Source: a phage
Sequence record: PZ496581.1
Reading direction: 5' to 3' (one strand)
DNA length: 64,000 nucleotides
Numbering within the stretch: the stretch's first letter is position 1; every line of letters begins with the position of its first letter. The position numbers and the translations under genes are program-made. Of the stretch, positions 1-43,259 are shown in pieces. The notes beneath the pieces were generated by a model, which made no database searches, was not told the origin of the DNA, and saw only the letters and a list, made by a program, of their open reading frames with translations.

Positions 1-558
1 TTCAGACGAAAGGTTGATAGCAAACGTATCGATAAGTGCTAACAACAATGTAGTGGACATCGTCGGAGCTAAAGAGTTCTCGTCAACTTCTACCGCGATA
101 CCGGTGCAGAACGTATAATCAAAAAGAGCTTCGTATTCTTGTGGAATGTCAGGGTTACAATGTAACAGAATCTGTTTAACCTGAGGACGAATCATACGAA
201 GATGTTTAGCAACACCTATCATTTCTTCAGTCTTACCAGAACGACTGATGTGAACTAATACATCATTAGGTGCAATAAATCCTGCGTCACCATGAGAATA
301 ATGCCCGGTGTTCAAATACATGCTAGGAATACCTAGTGAAGCAAAAGTCTCGGAAGCTTTAGTTGCGATATTAGCATTCTTACCAACACCTGTAATAATT
401 ACCCGGCTTTCATAATTACTAAGTCCAGGGCGTCGAAGAGTTTCTAGAATAGCATTATAACGAGCAGGGTTTTGACTAATTACTTTAGCCATAGTGGCAA
501 GAGATGAAGCTTGTTTTACGATTGCGTCAATAGCGATAGTAATAGGAGTAGTTTTCAT
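1..558 (-). CDS. SIS-domain sugar-phosphate isomerase (KpsF/GutQ arabinose-5-phosphate isomerase-like); 3' end cut by window edge
   Basis: ATG at 556-558 on minus strand; translation MKTTPITIAID...VIITGVGKNANIA...HGDAGFI...SRSGKTEE...APTMSTT carries SIS-fold motifs. Confidence 0.65.
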   Translation of the reverse strand, partial: MKTTPITIAIDAIVKQASSLATMAKVISQNPARYNAILETLRRPGLSNYESRVIITGVGKNANIATKASETFASLGIPSMYLNTGHYSHGDAGFIAPNDVLVHISRSGKTEEMIGVAKHLRMIRPQVKQILLHCNPDIPQEYEALFDYTFCTGIAVEVDENSLAPTMSTTLLLALIDTFAINLSSE

Positions 559-598
559 ATTTCTCTCATTTAATTAGTTGGCCGTCCTTGGCATTATA

Positions 599-3310
599 TC
601 AAAAATCAAACATATCGAACAGAGATGCTTTCTTCTCGTAATCGAGTTTAGCTGCTGATGTGAATCCTTCAAGTGGTTTAATAAATGTCTTCTCAAGGAG
701 AACAGTGTAGTCCATCCAATGAAGTACATCGTCTTTAATTAAATCTGTGATTTCAGTACCAGAAGGCCATGCGATACATTTATCACCGAATGGGTTTCCT
801 TCACGTAAAGGCAGAACATATACTTTTTCACCTTCTACAACTTGCGGTGCATCGATATTACCTTTGATAGCCCGGTTATACGTCAGAATTCCACGAATAT
901 GGAACGGGCATTTGGGACCAGGGAATCCACCGACGTCATATTTAGCAATGTTATTCGCAGAAGATACCGACGCGATGCTAATATAATTCAACTGACGGAA
1001 TTCTTTTTCAAACTCTTTAAAATATTCTTGTAATGATTCTTCACCTTCCTGAAGCATACGACGAATACATTCCTTAAGAGCTTTCTGTACTGCTTTAGGA
1101 GTCGAAGATTTCTGTGTTTCGAGACCCATGATTTTAAGCTTAGGTTCAGCGTATCTGGTTCCTTCCATATCCCATACATTCAAGGCATAACGTTTCTTAC
1201 CTGTCCAAAATCCGCCAATACCTTTAGAACCAAGCGGAGGCCCAGCGATAGCTTCTCGGTCCATGAACATTAAGTGTTGTTTATTGTTCATGTATTCACA
1301 CATTTCACGGAAACCTCTATCAATAGCTGGTTCCATACGTTCACGTGCAAACTTATCTAAGAAGTCTACCCAATGGTTGGTATCACGGAATTTAGATTCA
1401 CCAACCTTATCGATAATTTTATCGGCAGATACGTAAATAGAGTCTGTATCACCATAAAGAACGAAAGCTTCACCTTCTGTACCACAAACTTCATTCAGAT
1501 ATTCATTAACTTTACGTTCAATCCACTGTAAAGCCATTTGTCCGAATGTTGTGATTGCAGTAGCATTACGCAAATCATAATAACGGAACCAAACGTTTCC
1601 AAGTGCACCATAAAGTGAGTTGATGAGCAATTTACGGTTAATTTGTGCAGTCATACCTGCAACTTCAGTACGTTGAGCTCTAAACAACATTTCATTAAGA
1701 GATTTAGCAGACAACTTTTTAATCTTTTCTTTAATCTCATCGCTGAAGTCGAAACGATAATCAACATCTAATGGTTCGTCAACAGAAAGATTAGGATTAT
1801 GCAATGCCTCTTTAATTATTTCACCATTACGTTGAGCTGCAAGCATGTAACCTTTATGTTCTTTACGTTGATTAAAGACCTTAGTGATTTCAGTTGGAAC
1901 TACACCATCACGGTCTTTATAATACATCATGCCGTTAGGAGAACAACTGTACACATCTGAAGGACGTTCAGCGATTGCGTTAATATAATCATGCAATGGA
2001 GCTACTTTAAACGTTCCTGCTATTGTTTCCGGGCTAATATTCACTTGGCGAATAATACTTGGATACAGAGATGTAAGGTCGAAACTCATTACATATTTGT
2101 ATCGATTTGGAATAGGTTCCTTAACAAAAGCGCCAGGATAAGGTTGAACCGGGTGAGAACGACCTTGTGGAATCACCTTGTTCTGTTCTTTAAGGCTATT
2201 AAAAATAATAGCATCCCATGTTTTAATTGGGCCAAACACAGATTGAATCTGTATCTTAGCATAATAACCCATGTCCAAACTCAAGTTGATGAACTGACGC
2301 TTAGCATCAATTTGCAATACACGATACACATCGATAATGTTATAAGAAATATATCGTTGGTGATTGCTTTCACGAAGTTTAGAAATAGGGCCGTCATATT
2401 TCAGTTTACCAACGTTCAATTCAAATTCTGAAATGTAATCCAGAGAATACGATGGTTGATTGGTAAAAGAGAATTTTTTGTAAAGGTCAATGTAATCAAG
2501 AACAGAGATACCGAACAATGTAATGATTTCACGAGAACCATACATGTTTTCGATAACTTTAACACGAGTTTTACGATGTGGTGATAAACGTTTCGCAGTA
2601 GATTCGCCAAAAATATTCTTGATTCGGTTATACACATATGGAATATCGAATGACTCAACGTTCCATCCAGTCAAAATGACAGGAGTTTTCTGTTGCCAGA
2701 AGTTGAGATATTCCATCAACAATTCTTTTTCGTTATCGAACGGTATATAAATGATTTTATCGATAATTTCGGATGGAACTTCATCACCACCTTGTTCTTG
2801 AAGCTTAGCCGCAATTTCGATAGACCATTCTTCTACATTACCATACGGAGAATTCAATAGATCAAATACGTAGAACCTGTCGTCAATTGAGTCATAATGG
2901 GTGATAGCATCAATCGGATGTTTTGCTTGTGATGGCTCAGGGAACCCATCCGGAGATGTTACTTCGATGTCGAAGTTAGCCACACGAATTTTTGTATGGT
3001 CGTATTTGATTTCATAGTTATAAGTGTCAGACAAATACGCCAATTTGAAATCGTCCATACCAAGTGCTTCAAGTCCGATATCTTCCATGCGTTTAATCCA
3101 TTGGGAGGCATCACGCATATTAGCGAACAACTTACGAGTACACGGCTTACCGTAGATATCGAAATATTTCGTAGCCTGACTTTCTGGACAATGAGCAAAC
3201 AGTGATGGTTTATATTCTACTTCACGAGTACGTTCACGGCCATTAGAATCGATGTAACGTTCAAAAATTGAATCACCAATCTGTTCAACCGTTAAGTAAA
3301 ATTCTTTCAT
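599..3310 (-). CDS. 43: DNA polymerase, family B (gp43)
   Basis: 903-aa ORF with exo motif FDIEV and polymerase motifs SLYPS and YGDTDS; length and N-terminus as recalled for RB69 gp43. Confidence 0.97.
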   Translation of the reverse strand: MKEFYLTVEQIGDSIFERYIDSNGRERTREVEYKPSLFAHCPESQATKYFDIYGKPCTRKLFANMRDASQWIKRMEDIGLEALGMDDFKLAYLSDTYNYEIKYDHTKIRVANFDIEVTSPDGFPEPSQAKHPIDAITHYDSIDDRFYVFDLLNSPYGNVEEWSIEIAAKLQEQGGDEVPSEIIDKIIYIPFDNEKELLMEYLNFWQQKTPVILTGWNVESFDIPYVYNRIKNIFGESTAKRLSPHRKTRVKVIENMYGSREIITLFGISVLDYIDLYKKFSFTNQPSYSLDYISEFELNVGKLKYDGPISKLRESNHQRYISYNIIDVYRVLQIDAKRQFINLSLDMGYYAKIQIQSVFGPIKTWDAIIFNSLKEQNKVIPQGRSHPVQPYPGAFVKEPIPNRYKYVMSFDLTSLYPSIIRQVNISPETIAGTFKVAPLHDYINAIAERPSDVYSCSPNGMMYYKDRDGVVPTEITKVFNQRKEHKGYMLAAQRNGEIIKEALHNPNLSVDEPLDVDYRFDFSDEIKEKIKKLSAKSLNEMLFRAQRTEVAGMTAQINRKLLINSLYGALGNVWFRYYDLRNATAITTFGQMALQWIERKVNEYLNEVCGTEGEAFVLYGDTDSIYVSADKIIDKVGESKFRDTNHWVDFLDKFARERMEPAIDRGFREMCEYMNNKQHLMFMDREAIAGPPLGSKGIGGFWTGKKRYALNVWDMEGTRYAEPKLKIMGLETQKSSTPKAVQKALKECIRRMLQEGEESLQEYFKEFEKEFRQLNYISIASVSSANNIAKYDVGGFPGPKCPFHIRGILTYNRAIKGNIDAPQVVEGEKVYVLPLREGNPFGDKCIAWPSGTEITDLIKDDVLHWMDYTVLLEKTFIKPLEGFTSAAKLDYEKKASLFDMFDF

Positions 3311-3319
3311 TTAATTTCC

Positions 3320-3340
3320 TTTAGACGAGTTATTGTCTTT
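3320..3340 (-). promoter_or_regulatory. gp43 translational-operator-like hairpin 5' of the gene 43 ribosome-binding site
   Basis: mRNA-sense AGAC-AAUAACUC-GUCU hairpin then AAAGGAAAUUAAAUG; loop matches the T4 operator loop as recalled. Confidence 0.45.
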
Positions 3341-3368
3341 TGTTTGTTGATGAACTTATTATACTCCA

Positions 3369-3388
3369 AATGGGACCGAAGTCCCATT
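3369..3388 (-). other. stable RNA hairpin with UUCG tetraloop immediately 3' of regA
   Basis: AAUGGGAC-UUCG-GUCCCAUU on minus-strand RNA; near-identical copies at 23870-23885 and 37568-37589. Confidence 0.5.
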
Positions 3389-3391
3389 GCT

Positions 3392-3760
3392 TTAATTACC
3401 AATTGTATATTTTGCTTTCAAAGTCCAGTCATCTTTCTGTTTAAAAGAGATAACACGGAAGTTATTAGTCAGGCCAAACAGATCTTCACGAGCAGAGTCT
3501 TCAATAACAATCAAGCCCCAGTCTTCAAGCAACTGAGCAATCGAATCACGTCGCTGATAGTCTTCACCATCAATATCAACCTGACGTCCGTCCATACGCA
3601 GCATTTCTTTAAAGTGGACGATGTAATATTTACCTTGCTTTTGGAGGATATGACAGGACTGATAAAGAACTTTATCCTTGTTATTAGCGATGCCCATACG
3701 GGTCAGAGTCTCTTTGACTTTCAGAAAATCTTCGGGGTTCTTCAATTTAATTTCGATCAT
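3392..3760 (-). CDS. regA: translational repressor RegA
   Basis: ORF begins MIEIKLKNPEDFLKVKETLTRMGIANNKDKVLYQSCHILQK at the internal Met, matching T4 RegA. Confidence 0.93.
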   Translation of the reverse strand: MIEIKLKNPEDFLKVKETLTRMGIANNKDKVLYQSCHILQKQGKYYIVHFKEMLRMDGRQVDIDGEDYQRRDSIAQLLEDWGLIVIEDSAREDLFGLTNNFRVISFKQKDDWTLKAKYTIGN

Positions 3761-3762
3761 TT

Positions 3763-4326
3763 TTACCATTCCAATGCTAATTTTTTAAATTGTTTTTGTT
3801 CTTTCACATTTTTTGTAACTTCTTTGAGAAACTCATCAGTGACCATGGCCTTCAGTTCTTTAAGGACTATTGGCAACTTGTTATTTTTTTCAAGGAGCCG
3901 CTTATACTCGGTAGCATCATTCATGTTGATTGTGTAATGTTTCATCAACAGTTTGATAACTAGTAACTCTGAAGTGTCTTCGACTAGTTTAGCCCATTTA
4001 GAGAATCGTCGGCCACGTGGAATTGCCGCCATCATATAGTTGAAGTGCGCTTCATCACTTAATTCAGAACCGACTAAGTTCATCATGTAAACGGCTGGCA
4101 TACATTCTGGGAACTGGGATAATGAGTTCTCAACCATAAATTTTGAGTAGTCGACCTGAGCAATTGACATAGATTTCTTTTCATTAATAGCATTAATGAT
4201 TTTAAAGAATTCATTCTCAGGTTTTTCTTTAAACATGTCAGCACATTTTTGAATCGCATCAGCGTCGTTAGACTTCCATGCAATTTGGTGCTCGTTAAGT
4301 TGGACGTCATCATCAAATAAGTTCAT
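3763..4326 (-). CDS. 62: clamp loader small subunit gp62
   Basis: 187-aa ORF, T4 gp62-like, ends ...[13 protein letters not shown]; placed between regA and 44. Confidence 0.92.
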
Positions 4327-4327
4327 A

Positions 4328-5290
4328 TTATTTCCAAGTCAGTTCGCAGGTCAGTTGAAGAAGCATATACATAACATGTAATTCAATATTACTTGCTAAT
4401 CCATGAAACTTATTATTTTCGCCTGCAATTTCATAAAGCGAAATAATACTTTTACCTGGTGCAACTTTGTCATAACACTCAGAAACTAATTTATCGATGA
4501 ACCATGAATAATCAGCGGCATATTTTGGAGCTAACGCACGAAGCTGTTTGATATCTTTATTTTTCATTGCTTCTATGACATCATCTACCGTGCCACGATC
4601 ATTGGTTACAATCGACAAAATACCTGCATCAAGAACACCTTTAGACGAGTACTGGTCTAATTGACCAATTGTACGTCGAAAGTCCGGGAAGTTCTTTTTA
4701 ACCAGAGCTGCAACAACTTTCATATCAGCGATTTCGATATTTTCATTCTTACAGATTTCAACCATACGATGAATCATTTTCTTCATCATTGAGATTTTAT
4801 CTTCTTCGGTTGGACGTCCGAATTCGATAACTCGACAACGACTACGTAATGGTTCAATAATTCCATCGATGTTGTTGGCAGTAATAATAATAGAACAGTT
4901 ACTAGAGAATTCTTCCATGAATGTACGAAGGTGACGTTGTGATTCGGCGAGGCCACTACGGTCAAATTCATCAATAACAATAACTTTAGGTTTGCCTTCC
5001 ATTGAGACTGAACGAGCGAATGCAGTTAACGGACCACGCACAAAATCAATCTTACAATCAGAACCGTTGACGAACATCATTTCGGCATTGATATCATTAC
5101 ATAATGCTTTTGCTACGGTTGTTTTACCTGTACCAGGAGAAGGAGAGTGCAAAATAATATGAGGAAGTTTTCCTTTAGATACTAAAGACTTGAATGTTTC
5201 ATGGTCATACGCGGGCAGAATACATTCGTCAATGGAAGAAGGACGATATTTCTGTTCTAGAATGTGTTCTTTGGAATTGATAGTAATCAT
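4328..5290 (-). CDS. 44: clamp loader ATPase gp44
   Basis: 320 aa with Walker [11 protein letters not shown] and Walker B VIVIDEFD. Confidence 0.95.
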
Positions 5291-5365
5291 GTAATTTTCC
5301 TCATTATCATTAAACTGGAGGATTTCTCCTCCATAATCGTATCACAATAAACGTAAAGCTTTGAC

Positions 5366-6052
5366 TTAGAAGTCGTGAGTAGAATCGGCTTCCATCGCAA
5401 TAACATAACTTACTTGAGAGCTTTCAAACTTGGCTGCAACTTTATCACCAGCTCCCCACAACATTACTTTATAGTTACCTGGCTGGATTTTCATATTAGC
5501 CATATTGATTACGAAGTTAAAGTTGTTAGAACCATCATAATCGGTAAGAGTTAAAGAATACTTAGGACGAGTTAGTCCAGAATCTTCAACTTTATTATAG
5601 CCATTGATAACAATTTTACCATCTTTATTTGTAATAGCAATTGTATCAATCTGAAGACCACGTGAAACTCGAAGCAATTGTTGAAGGTCTTCAACTTTAA
5701 TTTCAGTAATCACAGAAGCCACTGGGAATTGAATTGGCTTATTAGGAAAAACAATGGTGCTCTTGTCGGCAGCAGGCCAATAAACTGTGGAACGTGTATC
5801 TGCAATTTTAATATTGCCATCAGTGTGCATTGAAATTTCAGCATCATCAGACACTAGACTCAAAATGCTTAAGAAGCTATTCAAATCATAAAGTGCTACG
5901 TCAAAATCAATTTCATCAGAGATATTTGCTTCCGCATAAGTGGTGCCATTAACTGCACGAGTCATAATAAATTTACCTTGACTCAGCAGAATGCCAGAGT
6001 TAATAGAGGCAAAGTTTTTCAGAATAGCGATAGTATCTTTAGACAGTTTCAT
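5366..6052 (-). CDS. 45: sliding clamp gp45
   Basis: MKLSKDTIAILKNFASINSGILL... matches T4 gp45; start taken at internal Met of the ORF. Confidence 0.94.
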   Translation of the reverse strand: MKLSKDTIAILKNFASINSGILLSQGKFIMTRAVNGTTYAEANISDEIDFDVALYDLNSFLSILSLVSDDAEISMHTDGNIKIADTRSTVYWPAADKSTIVFPNKPIQFPVASVITEIKVEDLQQLLRVSRGLQIDTIAITNKDGKIVINGYNKVEDSGLTRPKYSLTLTDYDGSNNFNFVINMANMKIQPGNYKVMLWGAGDKVAAKFESSQVSYVIAMEADSTHDF

Positions 6053-6094
6053 TTTATTTCCTTTCAAGACAATTCAAAGTTTATAACAAATTTA

Positions 6095-6511
6095 TTATGC
6101 AGCAACCATCTGCTTTTTAATAGCTTCAGGCAGTGATTCAATATATTCTGGAATTTTAGAAGCAACAATTTCGCCAGCTGCAATTAGTTGTTCGTCGGCA
6201 TCAACACAGTAGAAATCTTCTAGACGCTCAGAACCATCTTTATCAAGAACGATTTTTCCGCCGGCTTCAATAGAATCTTTATAGTGCTTACGCATCAGAT
6301 GAATCCACATATCAGATACATCGTTATCAATAAAACCATAAATCATAAAACGAGTTTCTTGTGGCAAAGATTGGAGTTTTTTAGCACTTGCGTCATCACA
6401 ATGCAGGACCCATGCTTTACGAACACGATTATGGTTATGTGGGTTAGCGTCAGTACGGATAGAAGTAACTTTCAGATCAGCAGCAGTGAAACCTTTAGCA
6501 GTAGTAAACAT
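6095..6511 (-). CDS. rpbA: RpbA-like RNA polymerase-binding protein
   Basis: 138-aa ORF in the T4 rpbA position between 45 and 46. Confidence 0.5.
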   Translation of the reverse strand: MFTTAKGFTAADLKVTSIRTDANPHNHNRVRKAWVLHCDDASAKKLQSLPQETRFMIYGFIDNDVSDMWIHLMRKHYKDSIEAGGKIVLDKDGSERLEDFYCVDADEQLIAAGEIVASKIPEYIESLPEAIKKQMVAA

Positions 6512-6523
6512 ATTATTTCTCTC

Positions 6524-6724
6524 TTATTCGTAGAAGTCGGTAACTGTCCATGCAGAATTGCGATTAGACGTTATTTTATTATACTCATCTTTAAAAGCAG
6601 ATTTGAGCATTTGTTCAGTAACAATATGTTCTTCACCTGAAAACGTATTGGTCAAAACATATTTTTTAATTTCAGGGGCAACTAGAAGATGTTGTCCGGT
6701 TGAATACTCCATGTTGTTCTCCAT
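6524..6724 (-). CDS. hypothetical protein (45.2 position)
   Basis: 66-aa ORF tightly packed between rpbA and 46. Confidence 0.5.
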   Translation of the reverse strand: MENNMEYSTGQHLLVAPEIKKYVLTNTFSGEEHIVTEQMLKSAFKDEYNKITSNRNSAWTVTDFYE

Positions 6725-6766
6725 TTAATTTGATGTGGTCATTATAACCACATCGTGTTAAAGCGT

Positions 6767-8455
6767 TTATGAAACAGTCATTACCGTAAATCGTCCAACT
6801 TTGCTCATTTGAAGATGTTGTCCATAACGTTGAGGGTCATGGTCTCGATGAGAGATAATGAACACGTTAGTATTTTGTAAACTTCCAAGAATAGTATCTA
6901 TAGCCTTAACAGCTTCAGAATCTACAGCGCCGTCAAAAACCTCATCAAGAATCAACGTGTTGATTTTAACACCAGAGACCTTTTCAGCAATATCTCGCCA
7001 TGTAAACAACAATGCGATATCGATACGCGCTTTTTCGCCTTGACTAAATGAAGCATAACTAAAATCTTCACGGCCACGTGATTTTATAGATTCATTGAAT
7101 TCTTCGTCAATAGAAAACACGTAATCAGCTTCCATGATTTTAAGATAATGGTTAATCTGCTTGTTGAACAGAGGCACATATTTTTTAATGATAGCACCTT
7201 TAATACCAGAATCTTTTAACATATCTGTGATAATACCACGATGGTATTTTTCAAGAACGATATCTGATTTTGTTTTAATGATTTTATCAAGTTCTTTTTG
7301 AAGCAAAGCTATCTCATCGGCATGGTCGATAAATTCAGCCGAGGCTTGTTCTATTGCAGCTTTAACTTTCTTAGCTTTATCAATAGTGGCAATCATTGCT
7401 TGTTTCTTGGTACGAATATCAGATGCAAGGTCCTGTTTAGTCTTAACATTAGCTCTATATTCGTCCACTAGGACACTCAGATTATCTCTGTGACATGTAA
7501 GTTGCTCGAATGAGTGATTACATTCGTGAAGCTTATCGGTAATCTTAGAGACAATAGGATCACCCTGGTGCAACTGTGATGCACAAGTAGGACATGTACC
7601 ACCATCATGATACATCTTAATAACTTTGTTATATGAGTCAATTTTAGATTTAATCAAGAATGCTTCTTGTCCGATCTTGTTGAACGCCTCAGTAGGGTCT
7701 TCGTCAAGAACGATATTAAGTAGACGCTCGTTAGCTTCTTCAATTTCTGCTTTTAATGAACGAGCTTCTTTGGCTAGGTCGTCATACATATTCTGTAGAC
7801 GCGCTACATTATCACCAGATAATTTCTTTTGACGTTCGATATTCTCGTTATAAATCTTAATTTGTTGGATAACACCATCTTTCTTGGCATCGAGAACTTG
7901 TCCCTGGGAATTAAGTTCTCGAACTTGAGACTTATTGATTTTATCCATTTCAGCGAGTGTGCCGACTTCTAAAAGGTCTTCGACAAGTTTTCTACGAGCA
8001 GGGGTGCTAAGAGCCATGAAAGGGGTATACCCTGCCGTCCCAAGCACAACGATTTGTTTAAAAGACGCGTATGACATTCCGATGCTACGTTCAAATTCTT
8101 CTTGGAAGTCACGACTGCTGGCAGATTCATCAAGACGAACACCGTCAACGGAGATTTCGAAAATATTGGGCTTTTGGCCACGTCTAATGAAGTATTTTTT
8201 ATCATCGAATTCCATCCAAAGCTCAACTAAGAGCTCTTTCTTGTTCGTGCTATTAATGATTTGTCCTTTCTTAACATCACGAAATGGTTTACCGAAAAGT
8301 CCGAAAGTAATGGCTTCTAACATCGTAGATTTACCACCGCCATTTTTACCAGTGATTAATGTCTTTTGGACTTTATCTAATTGGATATCAATAGGATTCC
8401 CACCTACCGACATGATGTTTTGATAACGAACACGATTTAATTTAAATGATTTCAT
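6767..8455 (-). CDS. 46: recombination endonuclease subunit gp46 (SbcC/Rad50-like)
   Basis: 562 aa, Walker A GKNGGGKST, long coiled coil, C-terminal LILDEVFDG; matches T4 gp46. Confidence 0.95.
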   Translation of the reverse strand: MKSFKLNRVRYQNIMSVGGNPIDIQLDKVQKTLITGKNGGGKSTMLEAITFGLFGKPFRDVKKGQIINSTNKKELLVELWMEFDDKKYFIRRGQKPNIFEISVDGVRLDESASSRDFQEEFERSIGMSYASFKQIVVLGTAGYTPFMALSTPARRKLVEDLLEVGTLAEMDKINKSQVRELNSQGQVLDAKKDGVIQQIKIYNENIERQKKLSGDNVARLQNMYDDLAKEARSLKAEIEEANERLLNIVLDEDPTEAFNKIGQEAFLIKSKIDSYNKVIKMYHDGGTCPTCASQLHQGDPIVSKITDKLHECNHSFEQLTCHRDNLSVLVDEYRANVKTKQDLASDIRTKKQAMIATIDKAKKVKAAIEQASAEFIDHADEIALLQKELDKIIKTKSDIVLEKYHRGIITDMLKDSGIKGAIIKKYVPLFNKQINHYLKIMEADYVFSIDEEFNESIKSRGREDFSYASFSQGEKARIDIALLFTWRDIAEKVSGVKINTLILDEVFDGAVDSEAVKAIDTILGSLQNTNVFIISHRDHDPQRYGQHLQMSKVGRFTVMTVS

Positions 8456-8706
8456 ATGTATTCTCTTCGAATGAAGTCCTCTACATATTTTAACATGTCA
8501 TCTCTATCAGCAAAATATTCATCTAGTTCCGCATACATAACAACACCTGGTGCATACTCACAGGTAACATACATTGTTCCAAAGAAACGAGGAGTTGATT
8601 CCTCGTAATTCTCAGTCCATTCAACGATACCAATATAACCGTCACCAATACTAAATTCATGACGATGGATTTCATAATCAGTCTTCGTCATTATACGCAT
8701 CCTCAA
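8452..8706 (-). CDS. hypothetical protein (46.1 position)
   Basis: 84-aa ORF overlapping the gp46 start by 4 nt. Confidence 0.5.
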   Translation of the reverse strand: MRMRIMTKTDYEIHRHEFSIGDGYIGIVEWTENYEESTPRFFGTMYVTCEYAPGVVMYAELDEYFADRDDMLKYVEDFIRREYI

Positions 8707-8935
8707 TACACGCTTCAGCCATTTTAAGAATAGAGCCGGGAGTATCGTTGTCCATTATATTAAAGCTAAATTCAATAGCCCAGTCGGTGCAGACATGAAC
8801 TGCTTTAACTTCATTGCCTTCAACGCGTAATGGCTCAATCCAATACTTGATGGTGTTCTCGAATCCATCATCATCTTTAACGTCTATTTCAACTTCAAGC
8901 CCGAGCCCAGCATTGTTAAATTCATCTAAAGTCAT
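8678..8935 (-). CDS. hypothetical protein (46.2 position)
   Basis: 85-aa acidic ORF between 46.1 and 47. Confidence 0.5.
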   Translation of the reverse strand: MTLDEFNNAGLGLEVEIDVKDDDGFENTIKYWIEPLRVEGNEVKAVHVCTDWAIEFSFNIMDNDTPGSILKMAEACIEDAYNDED

Positions 8936-9951
8936 TGTGTTGCCTCAATATAAAGTTCGTTGGAATATTTGACCAGCGCTTCTCTGTCTTCGTCTGAGAT
9001 ATCTGGAATCGCGTCAATATATTCTTTAATGATATCTTGAAGTGATTTAATCTCGATTTCCTGGTCATCATCAGATTCAACACTGTTATCAACTTTAGAA
9101 ACCATACGAAGAGAGTGAACTACTTTTTCAAGTTCAGATTCAAACTTAGTCAACTCTGAATCAATTTCTGATACTATAACACGTACGGCTAGATTAGTAT
9201 AATCAGAATAATTAATTTTGCCTTTAAACGGATAAGTGATTCGTCGATGCCATGTTGTTTCATTAGGAATAAATTCCATACGTTCAACATCAGTGTCAAA
9301 TACCCAGAATCCGCGTGGGTCGTTCTCATCGCCTGCAGTAAGGGTCCATGGTGTCCCAATATATTTGACGTTAGCAGCTTCAGAGATTGTGTGGAAGTGG
9401 CCGGACCAGACTTGTTTATAGGTCTTTAAGAAATCAGGTTCAAGCCCATGAGACTTCATTCCTTTATAGAAATAGAAGCCATTTAATTCCCAGTGACCAA
9501 CACAATATGCGGCAGAAGAAGTCTTGATGTGCTCTAAGATTTCACCTGTATTTTCTTCACACATCCATGGAATGATATCAATCAGACATCCGTCAAAATC
9601 TACAGTAGTTGGATGTTCGTAAATAGTAAAGTTTTCAAATTGAGTTAACAATTCAGAAACAGTGTTAGGTGTTATTGTATTCTTAAACGCCATGTCATGG
9701 TTTCCTATCGTGACATGAACGTGAATGCCTGCTTTAGAAATCATATCAACGATTTCACGATTGAATTCCATTGTACGATGTGTTATTGCTTTACGGACGT
9801 CAAACCAATCGCCGTACTGAATCCAAGTTTTAATCCCGTGTTTCTTAGAGTATTCAATTGCTTGACGAATACCATCACGTTGAATATCTTGAATCCATGG
9901 GTCGTCTTGTTTGACTCCGATATGGAAGTCGCCTAAGTGCAAAATTTTCAT
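8932..9951 (-). CDS. 47: recombination endonuclease subunit gp47 (SbcD/Mre11-like)
   Basis: 339 aa with phosphoesterase motifs LHLGDFH and GNHD. Confidence 0.95.
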   Translation of the reverse strand: MKILHLGDFHIGVKQDDPWIQDIQRDGIRQAIEYSKKHGIKTWIQYGDWFDVRKAITHRTMEFNREIVDMISKAGIHVHVTIGNHDMAFKNTITPNTVSELLTQFENFTIYEHPTTVDFDGCLIDIIPWMCEENTGEILEHIKTSSAAYCVGHWELNGFYFYKGMKSHGLEPDFLKTYKQVWSGHFHTISEAANVKYIGTPWTLTAGDENDPRGFWVFDTDVERMEFIPNETTWHRRITYPFKGKINYSDYTNLAVRVIVSEIDSELTKFESELEKVVHSLRMVSKVDNSVESDDDQEIEIKSLQDIIKEYIDAIPDISDEDREALVKYSNELYIEATQ

Positions 9952-9994
9952 ATTATTTCCTCATTAGTTAATTCATTCTATCATCCGTTTATAA

Positions 9995-10022
9995 AGCAAA
10001 AAAGGAACTCCGAAGAGTTCCT
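9995..10022 (-). terminator. intrinsic terminator
   Basis: GGAACUC-UUCG-GAGUUCC hairpin followed by a U6 tract on minus-strand RNA. Confidence 0.55.
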
Positions 10023-10192
10023 ATCCACATAGTACACCGTACAGAGGCTCATTTGAACTTTTAAATCGAATGGGCTTGTACGTAATAGTTCCTTCGGCTT
10101 TAGCTTTATCATAAGACTCTTTAAAACGTCTCATTCTTTCTGCTTTGCCTTTACGGATTTTATCGAAATTTTCAGAAGTCGGGATGTTCGTC
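10022..10192 (-). CDS. hypothetical small protein (57 aa, below ORF-track cutoff)
   Basis: ATG with GAGAGGTG SD; MTNIPTSENFDKIRKGKAERMRRF...; manual translation. Confidence 0.35.
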
Positions 10193-10233
10193 ATGCATAA
10201 GCACCTCTCAGAAAATGCCTAAATCAATTTCTC

Positions 10234-10455
10234 TCATCGTTTCCACCATTTCTTAACTTGAAATGAATCGACCCACACGAGTTGTTTTGGGTCTGCCTTT
10301 ACAATAGGCGGACAAATTTCTGTAATAGAACCGTCGTGATATTCCTTTTCAGAAATTTTAACACAAAGAGGACCTCCCAATTTAAGGGTGAACCCTGCGT
10401 TCAGCTTCAGACGTTTAAACTTTGTTTGAACTAGCGCCATTAATGATGTCCTCAA
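10234..10455 (-). CDS. hypothetical protein
   Basis: 73-aa ORF in tight minus-strand array. Confidence 0.4.
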   Translation of the reverse strand: MRTSLMALVQTKFKRLKLNAGFTLKLGGPLCVKISEKEYHDGSITEICPPIVKADPKQLVWVDSFQVKKWWKR

Positions 10456-10738
10456 TAGCCTGACGAGTAGTAACCCACTGGATTTTAATTAACTTGTCAT
10501 TATATGGTTGTCGTAGAATATCCCGAGATTTCTTAATAGCATATTCGTAAGCTTCGAAGTTGTTTTGAATTGCTGCTTCTTGAGCATGAGCATAAAGACG
10601 GTTTAGTTCAAAACGATTCTTTTTAAGAATCTTTTCGGATTTTTTACGTGCTTCAGCTTCATTTTTCTTTTGGATTTCTTGTAGCATTTTAGCTACTGCA
10701 TCTTCTGCTTCTTTATTTTCAATAATCTCGGTAGTCAT
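10415..10738 (-). CDS. hypothetical protein
   Basis: 107-aa ORF, charged helical composition. Confidence 0.5.
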   Translation of the reverse strand: MTTEIIENKEAEDAVAKMLQEIQKKNEAEARKKSEKILKKNRFELNRLYAHAQEAAIQNNFEAYEYAIKKSRDILRQPYNDKLIKIQWVTTRQAIEDIINGASSNKV

Positions 10739-10739
10739 A

Positions 10740-10955
10740 TTATCTCATTAAATTAAAATAAAAACGTCCATCCTCTTCAATACAGAACTCGTACTCAACC
10801 GGAGTCCCATTTATCGAAAATGACACGTCATGTGGGTTCAAAGGGTCGATGTCAAAATTAATTTTAAATTCTCGACCCAACAGTTTTACCAAATAAGGGA
10901 TTGCTTCGTCAAAAGGTTCTTCTAAGTAGTTAGAGATGTCAATTGTCATCCTCAT
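10740..10955 (-). CDS. hypothetical protein
   Basis: ORF 10740-11033; upstream part overlaps gene 55, so an internal Met near 10949-10955 is the likelier start. Confidence 0.45.
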
Positions 10956-11514
10956 ATAAAAAATCCAAACTAGGCGAATCGCTAACAACTTCCTTCTTTT
11001 CAGCCCCAGGAGCTTTATAAGCGGATTCTTCATAATGCGTCATTTTATCGTAGATGTCTTGAATAAACGTTTCATCTACCAACGCTACCATATCATCGTC
11101 ATGACTGTCGTAGACATTATGAACGAAGTAACTATATTTCTTTGCAACTTCCTTACGTTCTTTTTTGATACGTTGGACAAAAGCATTAAAACAAGCTCGA
11201 GTTATGTATGCATGTGGGTTATTGTACTTAGTTTCGTCGAAATTATGAAGTCCCTTAATAGAGGCTTCAATCCCATCTGCAATCATCTCCTGTTTCCAAG
11301 ACTGGGTATATCCTGAAAAGTTGAAACGTTTGGACAGGCCTTCGGCGATAAGCATAATTGCTAAACCGATGGTATCATTCTGACGAATAATTTTGTTTGG
11401 GTCTTTATTATTTAAGAGCTCCTTTTTCCACTCGATTATAGCGGCGAGAAGCTCTTTATTATTCACATAGTTATTTTTAGGTTTTTGTTCAGTCATAAGT
11501 ACCTCTTGGCTCAA
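10939..11514 (-). CDS. 55: late-transcription sigma factor gp55
   Basis: 191 aa, ...[26 protein letters not shown]...[26 protein letters not shown] matches T4 gp55. Confidence 0.95.
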
Positions 11515-11568
11515 TTCATAGGTCTATTATATCATAATATTTAGAGACCTATCTTAAAGCACGAGATA

Positions 11569-11838
11569 CTATCGGAGCAAACAATAAGCCTGAAACACTT
11601 TTTCCATTAAACGTTTGAACTCATGGATATCGATATAAAGCTCAGTAAGACCGGCATTATAAAGAAAATCTAAAAAGTTCTCATGTGTTTCGTTATAGTC
11701 GCCTTCGTTTAATTGAGATACATGAGTTTCCCAAAAACCAACACCTTTAACGAATGGAAAATACGTGACTTTCATGTATTCGTCAACATAAAATTCGCCC
11801 AGCTTTTCTTCAGTTATACTGATTCGAGTTAATTTCAT
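11569..11838 (-). CDS. hypothetical protein
   Basis: 89-aa ORF. Confidence 0.5.
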   Translation of the reverse strand: MKLTRISITEEKLGEFYVDEYMKVTYFPFVKGVGFWETHVSQLNEGDYNETHENFLDFLYNAGLTELYIDIHEFKRLMEKVFQAYCLLR

Positions 11839-34137: not shown

Positions 34138-34200
34138 TTTTGTTTCCTTGTTTGTTTTGATAGAGTAATTATACCATATTAATACTTAAGCGTAAACCGT

Positions 34201-43206: not shown

Positions 43207-43259
43207 AGGTTTTCCTCATATAATTTATGAGTGATTATAACATACGGAGCTAGAAGCGA

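Follow-up and report, generated by a model that had tools for sequence, protein, structure and literature searches.

In the glucosylation of hydroxymethylcytosine (hmC) by phage T4, the modified dCMP is made by a ThyA-superfamily enzyme, and the sugar is added to the replicated DNA by glycosyltransferases. The sugar nucleotide is UDP-glucose from the host, and genes for sugar activation are not needed. The T4 gene order is 43, imm.1, imm, 42, beta-gt, segA, uvsX in one region and 47, 47.1, alpha-gt (1203 bp), mobB, a-gt.2 to a-gt.5, 55 in another.

In RB69, the sugar is arabinose. Thomas et al. (2018; PMC6024577) found this sugar in RB69 DNA, described the modified base as arabinosyl-hmC, and suggested even then that UDP-arabinose is produced by ORF055c and ORF53_52c. 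Lee et al. (NAR 2026; PMC13326640) have since identified the RB69 base by MS/MS and NMR as beta-D-Araf-(1-3)-alpha-D-Araf-5-hydroxy-2'-deoxycytidine. Mono- and di-arabinofuranosyl-5-hydroxycytosine were detected by LC-MS/MS, NMR, and 18O2 labeling, and the sugar was identified as D-arabinofuranose by NMR and GC-MS (PMC13326640). The RB69 ThyA homologue, gp48, uses O2 and a flavin to make 5-hydroxy-dCMP, with no hydroxymethylation; the pathway starts from D-arabinose 5-phosphate (A5P), and gp55 was proposed, as a prediction, to turn ribulose-5-P into arabinose-5-P (PMC13326640). According to He et al. (2026), as far as that work is cited in PMC13326640, A5P is phosphorylated at C1 by a bifunctional enzyme of the AfhE type, which afterwards also uridylylates Ara-1-P, and the 5-phosphate is removed by a HAD phosphatase of the AfhF type. 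The Durham Collection paper (PMC13390438) described 5-ara-dC and 5-ara-ara-dC in another Mosigvirus and considered the hydroxymethyl assignment for RB69 erroneous. Arabinosylated 5-hydroxy-dC has now been found in the virion DNA of RB69, Mosigvirus NP, and Bas46/47 (PMC13326640, PMC13390438). The isomerase gene of this pathway and its proposed role are thus already known: the role was proposed in 2018 and refined in 2025-2026, and the gene is routinely annotated in GenBank.

The DNA analyzed here (the window) is a stretch of 64,000 nucleotides of phage sequence (PZ496581.1). Over positions 1-3400 it was 98.5% identical to Escherichia virus vB_Eco_mar005P1 and 97-98% identical to dozens of RB69-like phages, which identifies its source, by sequence, as an RB69-like phage of the Mosigvirus type. 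An initial annotation of its left end had called a KpsF/GutQ-like SIS isomerase and had linked it to a phage that places a pentose on hmC. That interpretation was partly supported overall; it was largely right, and dated with respect to the acceptor base.

An arabinose-5-phosphate isomerase gene next to gene 43

The minus-strand frame at the left end of the window (Table 1) opens with an ATG at 558-556 and continues for 186 codons, with zero stops, past the left window end. The last 25 codons, including that of the HPGG histidine, fall to the left of position 1. The gene lies downstream of gene 43, from which it is separated by a spacer of 40 nt. At the DNA level, positions 1-640 matched Shigella phage JK45 with 100% identity and RB69 with 90.5% identity, and the protein was 100% identical to JK45 gp049 and 96% identical to RB69 gp55 (ORF055c, NP_861745.1). 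There was no sign of recent transfer in the base composition of the gene (GC, 40%, compared to 36-39% nearby).

Table 1. Coordinates of the features discussed in the text
Feature	Sequence	Coordinates	Strand	Remarks
SIS-domain arabinose-5-phosphate isomerase (API), CBS-less	Window	1..558	minus	186/211 codons; translation, Pfam, NCBIfam, and PDB matches
Putative Shine-Dalgarno-like GAGAG	Window	563..567	minus	-9 to -5 from the ATG at 558; read from sequence; kept in RB69
TGATATAAT, extended -10-like motif, candidate weak promoter	Window	593..601	minus	35 nt upstream of the API start codon
Gene 43, DNA polymerase, 903 aa	Window	599..3310	minus	All close database matches so annotated
Gene 47	Window	8932-9951		
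Gene 47-gene 55 interval	Window	9952..10938	minus	Only a-gt.2 to a-gt.5 homologues
Gene 55	Window	10939-11514		
U32 gene	JK45 locus	5451-6611	minus	
U32 gene	RB69 locus	8493-9662	minus	
U32 gene	EcS1, retrieved locus sequence	9891-11066	plus	
U32 gene	KLB31, retrieved locus sequence	6983-8158	plus	
U32 gene	F48, retrieved locus sequence	7001-8161	plus	
U32 gene	Thanatos-2, retrieved locus sequence	7001-8137	plus	
CM_2 ORF	EcS1, retrieved locus sequence	11063-11407	plus	
CM_2 ORF	KLB31, retrieved locus sequence	8155-8394	plus	
CM_2 ORF	F48, retrieved locus sequence	8158-8403	plus	
CM_2 ORF	Thanatos-2, retrieved locus sequence	8134-8391	plus	

The call of a KpsF/GutQ-like SIS isomerase was borne out by the Pfam, NCBIfam, and PDB matches. 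The Pfam SIS model (PF01380) matched with an E value of 6e-10 (39.4 bits; cutoff, 25). The best NCBIfam models were KpsF/GutQ (TIGR00393; E, 2e-21) and KdsD (E, 2e-20), in both cases over the SIS half only and with scores short of the full-length cutoff, and they led all other SIS families (E of 1e-6 or worse) by more than 7 orders of magnitude. The TIGR00393 match covered model positions 2-129 of 268, and its score of 76.7 bits was below the full-length cutoff of 203.7 because the CBS half is missing. A PDB search with the full-length JK45 orthologue (211 aa; identical at all 186 residues encoded in the window) returned APIs as the best relatives throughout: Bacteroides fragilis 3ETN (E, 1e-24; residues 48-206), 5UQI (E, 2e-22), and the SIS domain of E. 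coli KdsD, 2XHZ (E, 2e-18). AlphaFold2 run without an alignment on the 186-aa fragment gave an unusable model (mean pLDDT, 39.6).

E. coli KdsD and GutQ have the same SIS catalytic core and residues as the phage protein and presumably catalyze the same interconversion of ribulose 5-phosphate (Ru5P) and A5P; unlike the phage protein, they are 321-328 aa long and carry two C-terminal CBS domains. Full-length phage orthologues are 211 aa long and stop right after the SIS domain, with no tandem C-terminal CBS domains. The single-domain API 3ETN and the 198-aa phosphosugar isomerase 5UQI are likewise ~200 aa long, with SIS only and no CBS pair, and their motifs GxGK, HGD, SxSG(K/E)TxE, E, and HxGG all aligned in the phage protein. 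With its length of ~200 aa, N-terminal helical segment, C-terminal HxGG, and an API as closest solved relative, the phage protein groups on sequence features with the single-domain APIs of the 3ETN/5UQI type rather than with KdsD/GutQ proper. Identity to 3ETN and 5UQI is roughly 30-35%, and the bacterial enzymes feed Kdo or capsule synthesis, whereas the phage enzyme is predicted to feed UDP-arabinofuranose synthesis for DNA.

The catalytic residues of KdsD are reported to be K59, H88, E111, E152, and H193 (Gourlay et al. 2010). In the PDB-match alignments the first four correspond to phage K60, H89, E112, and E157. The equivalent of H193 is H198, in the sequence FHPGG; it lies outside the window and is present in the JK45, RB69, EcS1, and Acj61 orthologues. 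All five positions were invariant in Mosigvirus, in Kagamiyamavirus EcS1 (75% identical), and in Acinetobacter Lasallevirus Acj61 (57% identical), and K60, H89, E112, and E157 were invariant in four phage lineages. Loss of the isomerase catalytic residues had been named in the initial annotation as an argument against its reading; in the alignments, K60, H89, E112, and E157 were kept. We infer that the phage API itself would catalyze the interconversion of Ru5P and A5P.

Two other functions for the SIS domain were weighed against this evidence. The protein might be an isomerase acting on another substrate, for example another ketose phosphate, with the A5P for DNA coming solely from host KdsD/GutQ. 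The missed full-length NCBIfam cutoff could be taken in this sense, as could the existence of modules that have no API gene (see below). However, the absent CBS half explains the low score, all API catalytic positions are kept, the best PDB matches are all APIs, and other SIS families match far less well; a different substrate therefore appears improbable. The least probable reading considered was that of a noncatalytic SIS protein that senses or regulates sugar phosphates. SIS domains do occur in RpiR/MurR regulators, to which weak matches (E, 1e-4 to 1e-3) were found, but the 211-aa protein has no HTH or other effector domain, and the catalytic Lys, His, and Glu are invariant across lineages that are only 57% identical.

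Transcription of the API gene

The initial annotation gave the API gene a TATAAT promoter of its own. The minus strand does contain this hexamer, at 598-593, with TG in front of it, and the TGA within TGATATAAT is the stop codon of gene 43. However, no -35 hexamer, T4-early GTTTAC, or MotA box was found upstream of TGATATAAT, and a scan of positions 1-1500 for sigma-70 consensus promoters did not call the site. The motif TGNTATAAT occurs 9 times in the window compared to 5.4 expected, and 9 of 100 shuffles reached 9, so that the motif alone is not beyond chance. Its retention in RB69, where the stretch is only ~90% identical, counts for a promoter, as does its distance of 35 nt from the ATG, which resembles that at three other intergenic TGNTATAAT sites; its lack of conservation in EcS1 counts against.

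Those three sites, all on the minus strand, are at 11526-11534, 34168-34176, and 43234-43242, and each precedes a minus-strand start codon (11496 for gene 55, 34137, and 43206) by 28-31 nt. The site at 34176 has a T4-early-type GTTTAC -35-like hexamer. The three are likely to be real early promoters and serve as a comparison for the motif at 601-593.

No terminator-like site or stable RNA structure was found in the 40-nt spacer between gene 43 and the API gene by terminator scan or RNA folding (z, 0.52). The sole terminator-like match in the scan of positions 1-1500, at 336-323, was inside the API open reading frame and at chance level. With no terminator or RNA structure in the spacer, read-through from gene 43 is no less likely than a separate promoter, and gene 43 is probably the cotranscription partner of the API gene.

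The arabinosylation module and a predicted route to UDP-arabinofuranose

The companion genes of the API gene lie beyond the left edge of the window and are known from near-identical genomes, such as that of JK45 (100% identical over window positions 1-640). In these genomes the genes are just to the left of the API gene, where the rest of the pathway had been presumed to be. Leftward from the API gene, JK45 and RB69 have a 47-aa ORF, a 561-aa NTP-transferase/kinase, a 128-aa HAD-type "capsule biosynthesis phosphatase," and a 386-aa Peptidase_U32 protein, followed by a 79-aa ORF, a 238-aa ThyA homologue, a 299-aa putative arabinosyltransferase, a 182-aa kinase, and uvsX. A module with the API gene first after gene 43 is also present in EcS1, Klebsiella phage KLB31, and Acinetobacter phage Acj61; the order conserved from E. 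coli phages to Acinetobacter phages is gene 43, API, NTP-transferase/kinase, HAD phosphatase, ThyA homologue, glycosyltransferase, and kinase. The API gene of the window is orthologous to RB69 gp55 and lies directly downstream of gene 43, both features of the arabinosyl-5-hydroxycytosine module. There is no substantive difference from RB69 gp55 and its orthologues (JK45, Bas46/47, and the Afh pathway of HY126), which occupy the same site below gene 43 with the same module to the left.

The module occupies the same genomic neighborhood as the T4 genes for hmC glucosylation. The API gene stands downstream of gene 43 in place of T4 imm.1/imm, as had been noted from the window, and beta-gt is absent from JK45 and RB69 at its T4 locus, which is outside the window. 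Neither an alpha-glucosyltransferase gene nor mobB is present between genes 47 and 55 of the window, also in agreement with the initial annotation; this interval of ~990 bp contains only four ORFs of 57-107 aa (DUF5486, no match, DUF2654, and DUF5491). In contrast to T4, the phage must make its own NDP-arabinose, and the presence of the API, kinase/NTP-transferase, and phosphatase genes is explained by this requirement.

The difference from T4 extends to the base. The JK45 ThyA homologue was 99% identical to RB69 gp48 and ~97% identical to PDB entries 9IQC, 9IR2, and 9IQU, and in place of the RSADI of thymidylate synthases it has RSQNC, the D169N signature of 5hodCMP synthases. By analogy with the phages whose DNA has been analyzed, it is 5-hydroxycytosine and not hmC that accepts the sugar in this phage type. 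Of the earlier proposal of a pentose on hmC, the pentose, D-arabinose, was correct and the base was not (PMC13326640, PMC13390438).

Considered together, the gene order and the family matches make it very probable that the Straboviridae DNA-arabinosylation module begins with this ORF and that the ORF encodes a small, probably oligomeric, SIS-only D-arabinose-5-phosphate isomerase that feeds it. The enzyme would convert D-ribulose 5-phosphate, an intermediate of the host pentose-phosphate pathway, to A5P. The kinase domain of the bifunctional enzyme (RB69 gp52:53, HY126 AfhE) would convert A5P to arabinofuranose-1,5-bisphosphate, the HAD phosphatase (gp51, AfhF) would yield arabinofuranose-1-phosphate, and the nucleotidyltransferase domain of the bifunctional enzyme would produce UDP-arabinofuranose. 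The DNA glycosyltransferases gp46:47 and gp3 would then move the sugar to 5-hydroxycytosine of replicated phage DNA, with mono- and di-arabinosyl-5hoC as the expected end product, blocking restriction enzymes. Because C5 bears the phosphate, the furanose is the only ring form open to A5P. With C1 phosphorylated and the 5-phosphate then removed, the pathway would lead through Araf-1-P to UDP-Araf with no mutase required, and this route may account for the furanose form of the DNA sugar.

Alternatively, the phage might carry the isomerase as an auxiliary metabolic gene that serves the host envelope, for Kdo/LPS or capsule upkeep rather than DNA modification, as its closest characterized homologues (KdsD, GutQ, KpsF, and 3ETN) act in Kdo and capsule pathways. 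However, the gene always heads a cytosine-modification module, beside genes for a nucleotidyltransferase/kinase, HAD phosphatase, 5hodCMP synthase, and DNA glycosyltransferase; genes for KdsA, KdsB, and KdsC are absent nearby; and the DNA of these phages contains D-arabinose (PMC13326640). An envelope function is thus very improbable.

The GC content of the window (37.4%) corresponds to ~63,000 cytosines in a 168-kb genome. Assuming one or two arabinoses per cytosine and a burst of 100-200, demand would be roughly 10^7 arabinose units per infected cell within one latent period. The host already makes A5P via KdsD and GutQ, which counts against a role for a phage API. The phage API would lift the A5P supply above the output of the host KdsD/GutQ, and an enzyme lacking the CBS domains and expressed with the replication genes would meet the arabinose demand.

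The API gene was found by tblastn in 276 phage records, in many of which it is annotated "arabinose 5-phosphate isomerase" and in some of which it is annotated as hypothetical. The carriers were Escherichia/Shigella Mosigvirus and phages of Acinetobacter, Serratia, Enterobacter, Yersinia, Erwinia, Edwardsiella, and Pectobacterium, with a few distant matches. Klebsiella phage records included at most 3 with the API gene and 26 with the U32 gene.

In Klebsiella phage F48 (Marfavirus) and Shewanella phage Thanatos-2, the region from gene 43 to uvsX lacks a SIS/API gene. Their modules retain the NTP-transferase/kinase, ThyA homologue, glycosyltransferase-like ORF, U32 protein, and chorismate mutase. 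Since these modules are without it, the API is not indispensable to the pathway, and it is best seen as a putative optional flux booster that, having no CBS domains, would be unregulated.

The API gene in the window was recognized correctly, but both the gene and its proposed role were known before, so that it carries little weight as a discovery; its practical use is in diagnosis. An API gene that immediately follows gene 43 and the absence of alpha-gt can together serve as a marker of T4-like phages with arabinosylated 5-hydroxycytosine. Phages with this marker are predicted to resist many type II restriction enzymes and to be sensitive to type IV enzymes of the GmrSD/BrxU type, which is relevant to the choice or engineering of phages.

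A U32 protein in the module, and minor observations on related records

The U32 protein of the module (JK45 gp045, 386 aa; RB69 counterpart, gp50), which is encoded outside the window, provides a side lead. RB69 gp50 was labeled only "sugar or heterocycle reductase" by Lee et al. (PMC13326640). Members of the U32 family include RlhA, which acts in the formation of 5-hydroxycytidine 2501 in 23S rRNA; TrhP, for 5-hydroxyuridine 34 in tRNA; and UbiU/UbiV, all of which are O2-independent hydroxylases with prephenate as the oxygen donor (PMC5727448, PMC6599085, PMC10990095). Among the papers covered by a literature search, none links a U32 protein to phage 5-hydroxycytosine; such a link may have been described before, by He et al. 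2026 (Nat Chem Biol) or by Mahler et al. 2025 (Cell Host Microbe).

Profile comparison (hhalign) of the phage protein with E. coli UbiU, UbiV, RlhA, and TrhP gave a probability of 90% (E, 1.6e-6), and a PDB sequence search with the phage protein returned no match. Phage C203, C209, and C233 aligned with C169, C176, and C193 of UbiU. The latter are reportedly the Fe-S ligands of UbiU (Pelosi et al. 2019). The phage U32 protein was present in 222 phage records, always with at least 82% identity, and the named hosts were all enterobacteria or Shewanella. None of the 222 records was from an Acinetobacter phage, though 57 Acinetobacter phage records carry the API gene and the remainder of the module occurs in such phages; Acinetobacter is a strict aerobe.

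In EcS1, KLB31, F48, and Thanatos-2, the ORF directly after the U32 gene encodes a Pfam CM_2 chorismate mutase (32.8-46.2 bits; cutoff, 27). Chorismate mutase makes prephenate. The U32 gene was followed by a chorismate mutase gene in four of the five lineages examined; in Mosigvirus, the 79-aa ORF in the same slot (JK45 gp044, 5215-5454, minus strand; RB69 ORF049c, 8257-8496, minus strand) is unrelated and had no Pfam match. It is possible, although we regard this reading as doubtful, that the module has two routes to 5-hydroxycytosine, one through the O2- and flavin-dependent ThyA homologue and one through an O2-independent, prephenate-dependent U32 hydroxylase that would permit hypermodification under anoxia in the gut. 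If true, the U32 route would let gut phages hypermodify their DNA where O2 is absent.

Two minor observations concern the records of related phages. In the RB69 reference (NC_004928), two ORFs stand for the glycosyltransferase (ORF046/047) and another two for the NTP-transferase/kinase (ORF052/053), each gene being split. The split regions, at 6598-7498 and 10095-11781 of the RB69 locus, correspond to 3557-4456 and 7056-8741 of the JK45 locus, where each is a single ORF (299 and 561 aa, respectively). The splits have been attributed to sequencing errors (PMC13326640), with which the single ORFs of JK45 agree. The taxonomy line of the JK45 record (NC_054940.1) reads Tequatrovirus, yet JK45 is 98.4% identical to the window over 3.4 kb and has a Mosigvirus-type arabinosylation module in place of gene 42, beta-gt, and alpha-gt. 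Judged by its sequence, the Tequatrovirus label appears to be wrong.
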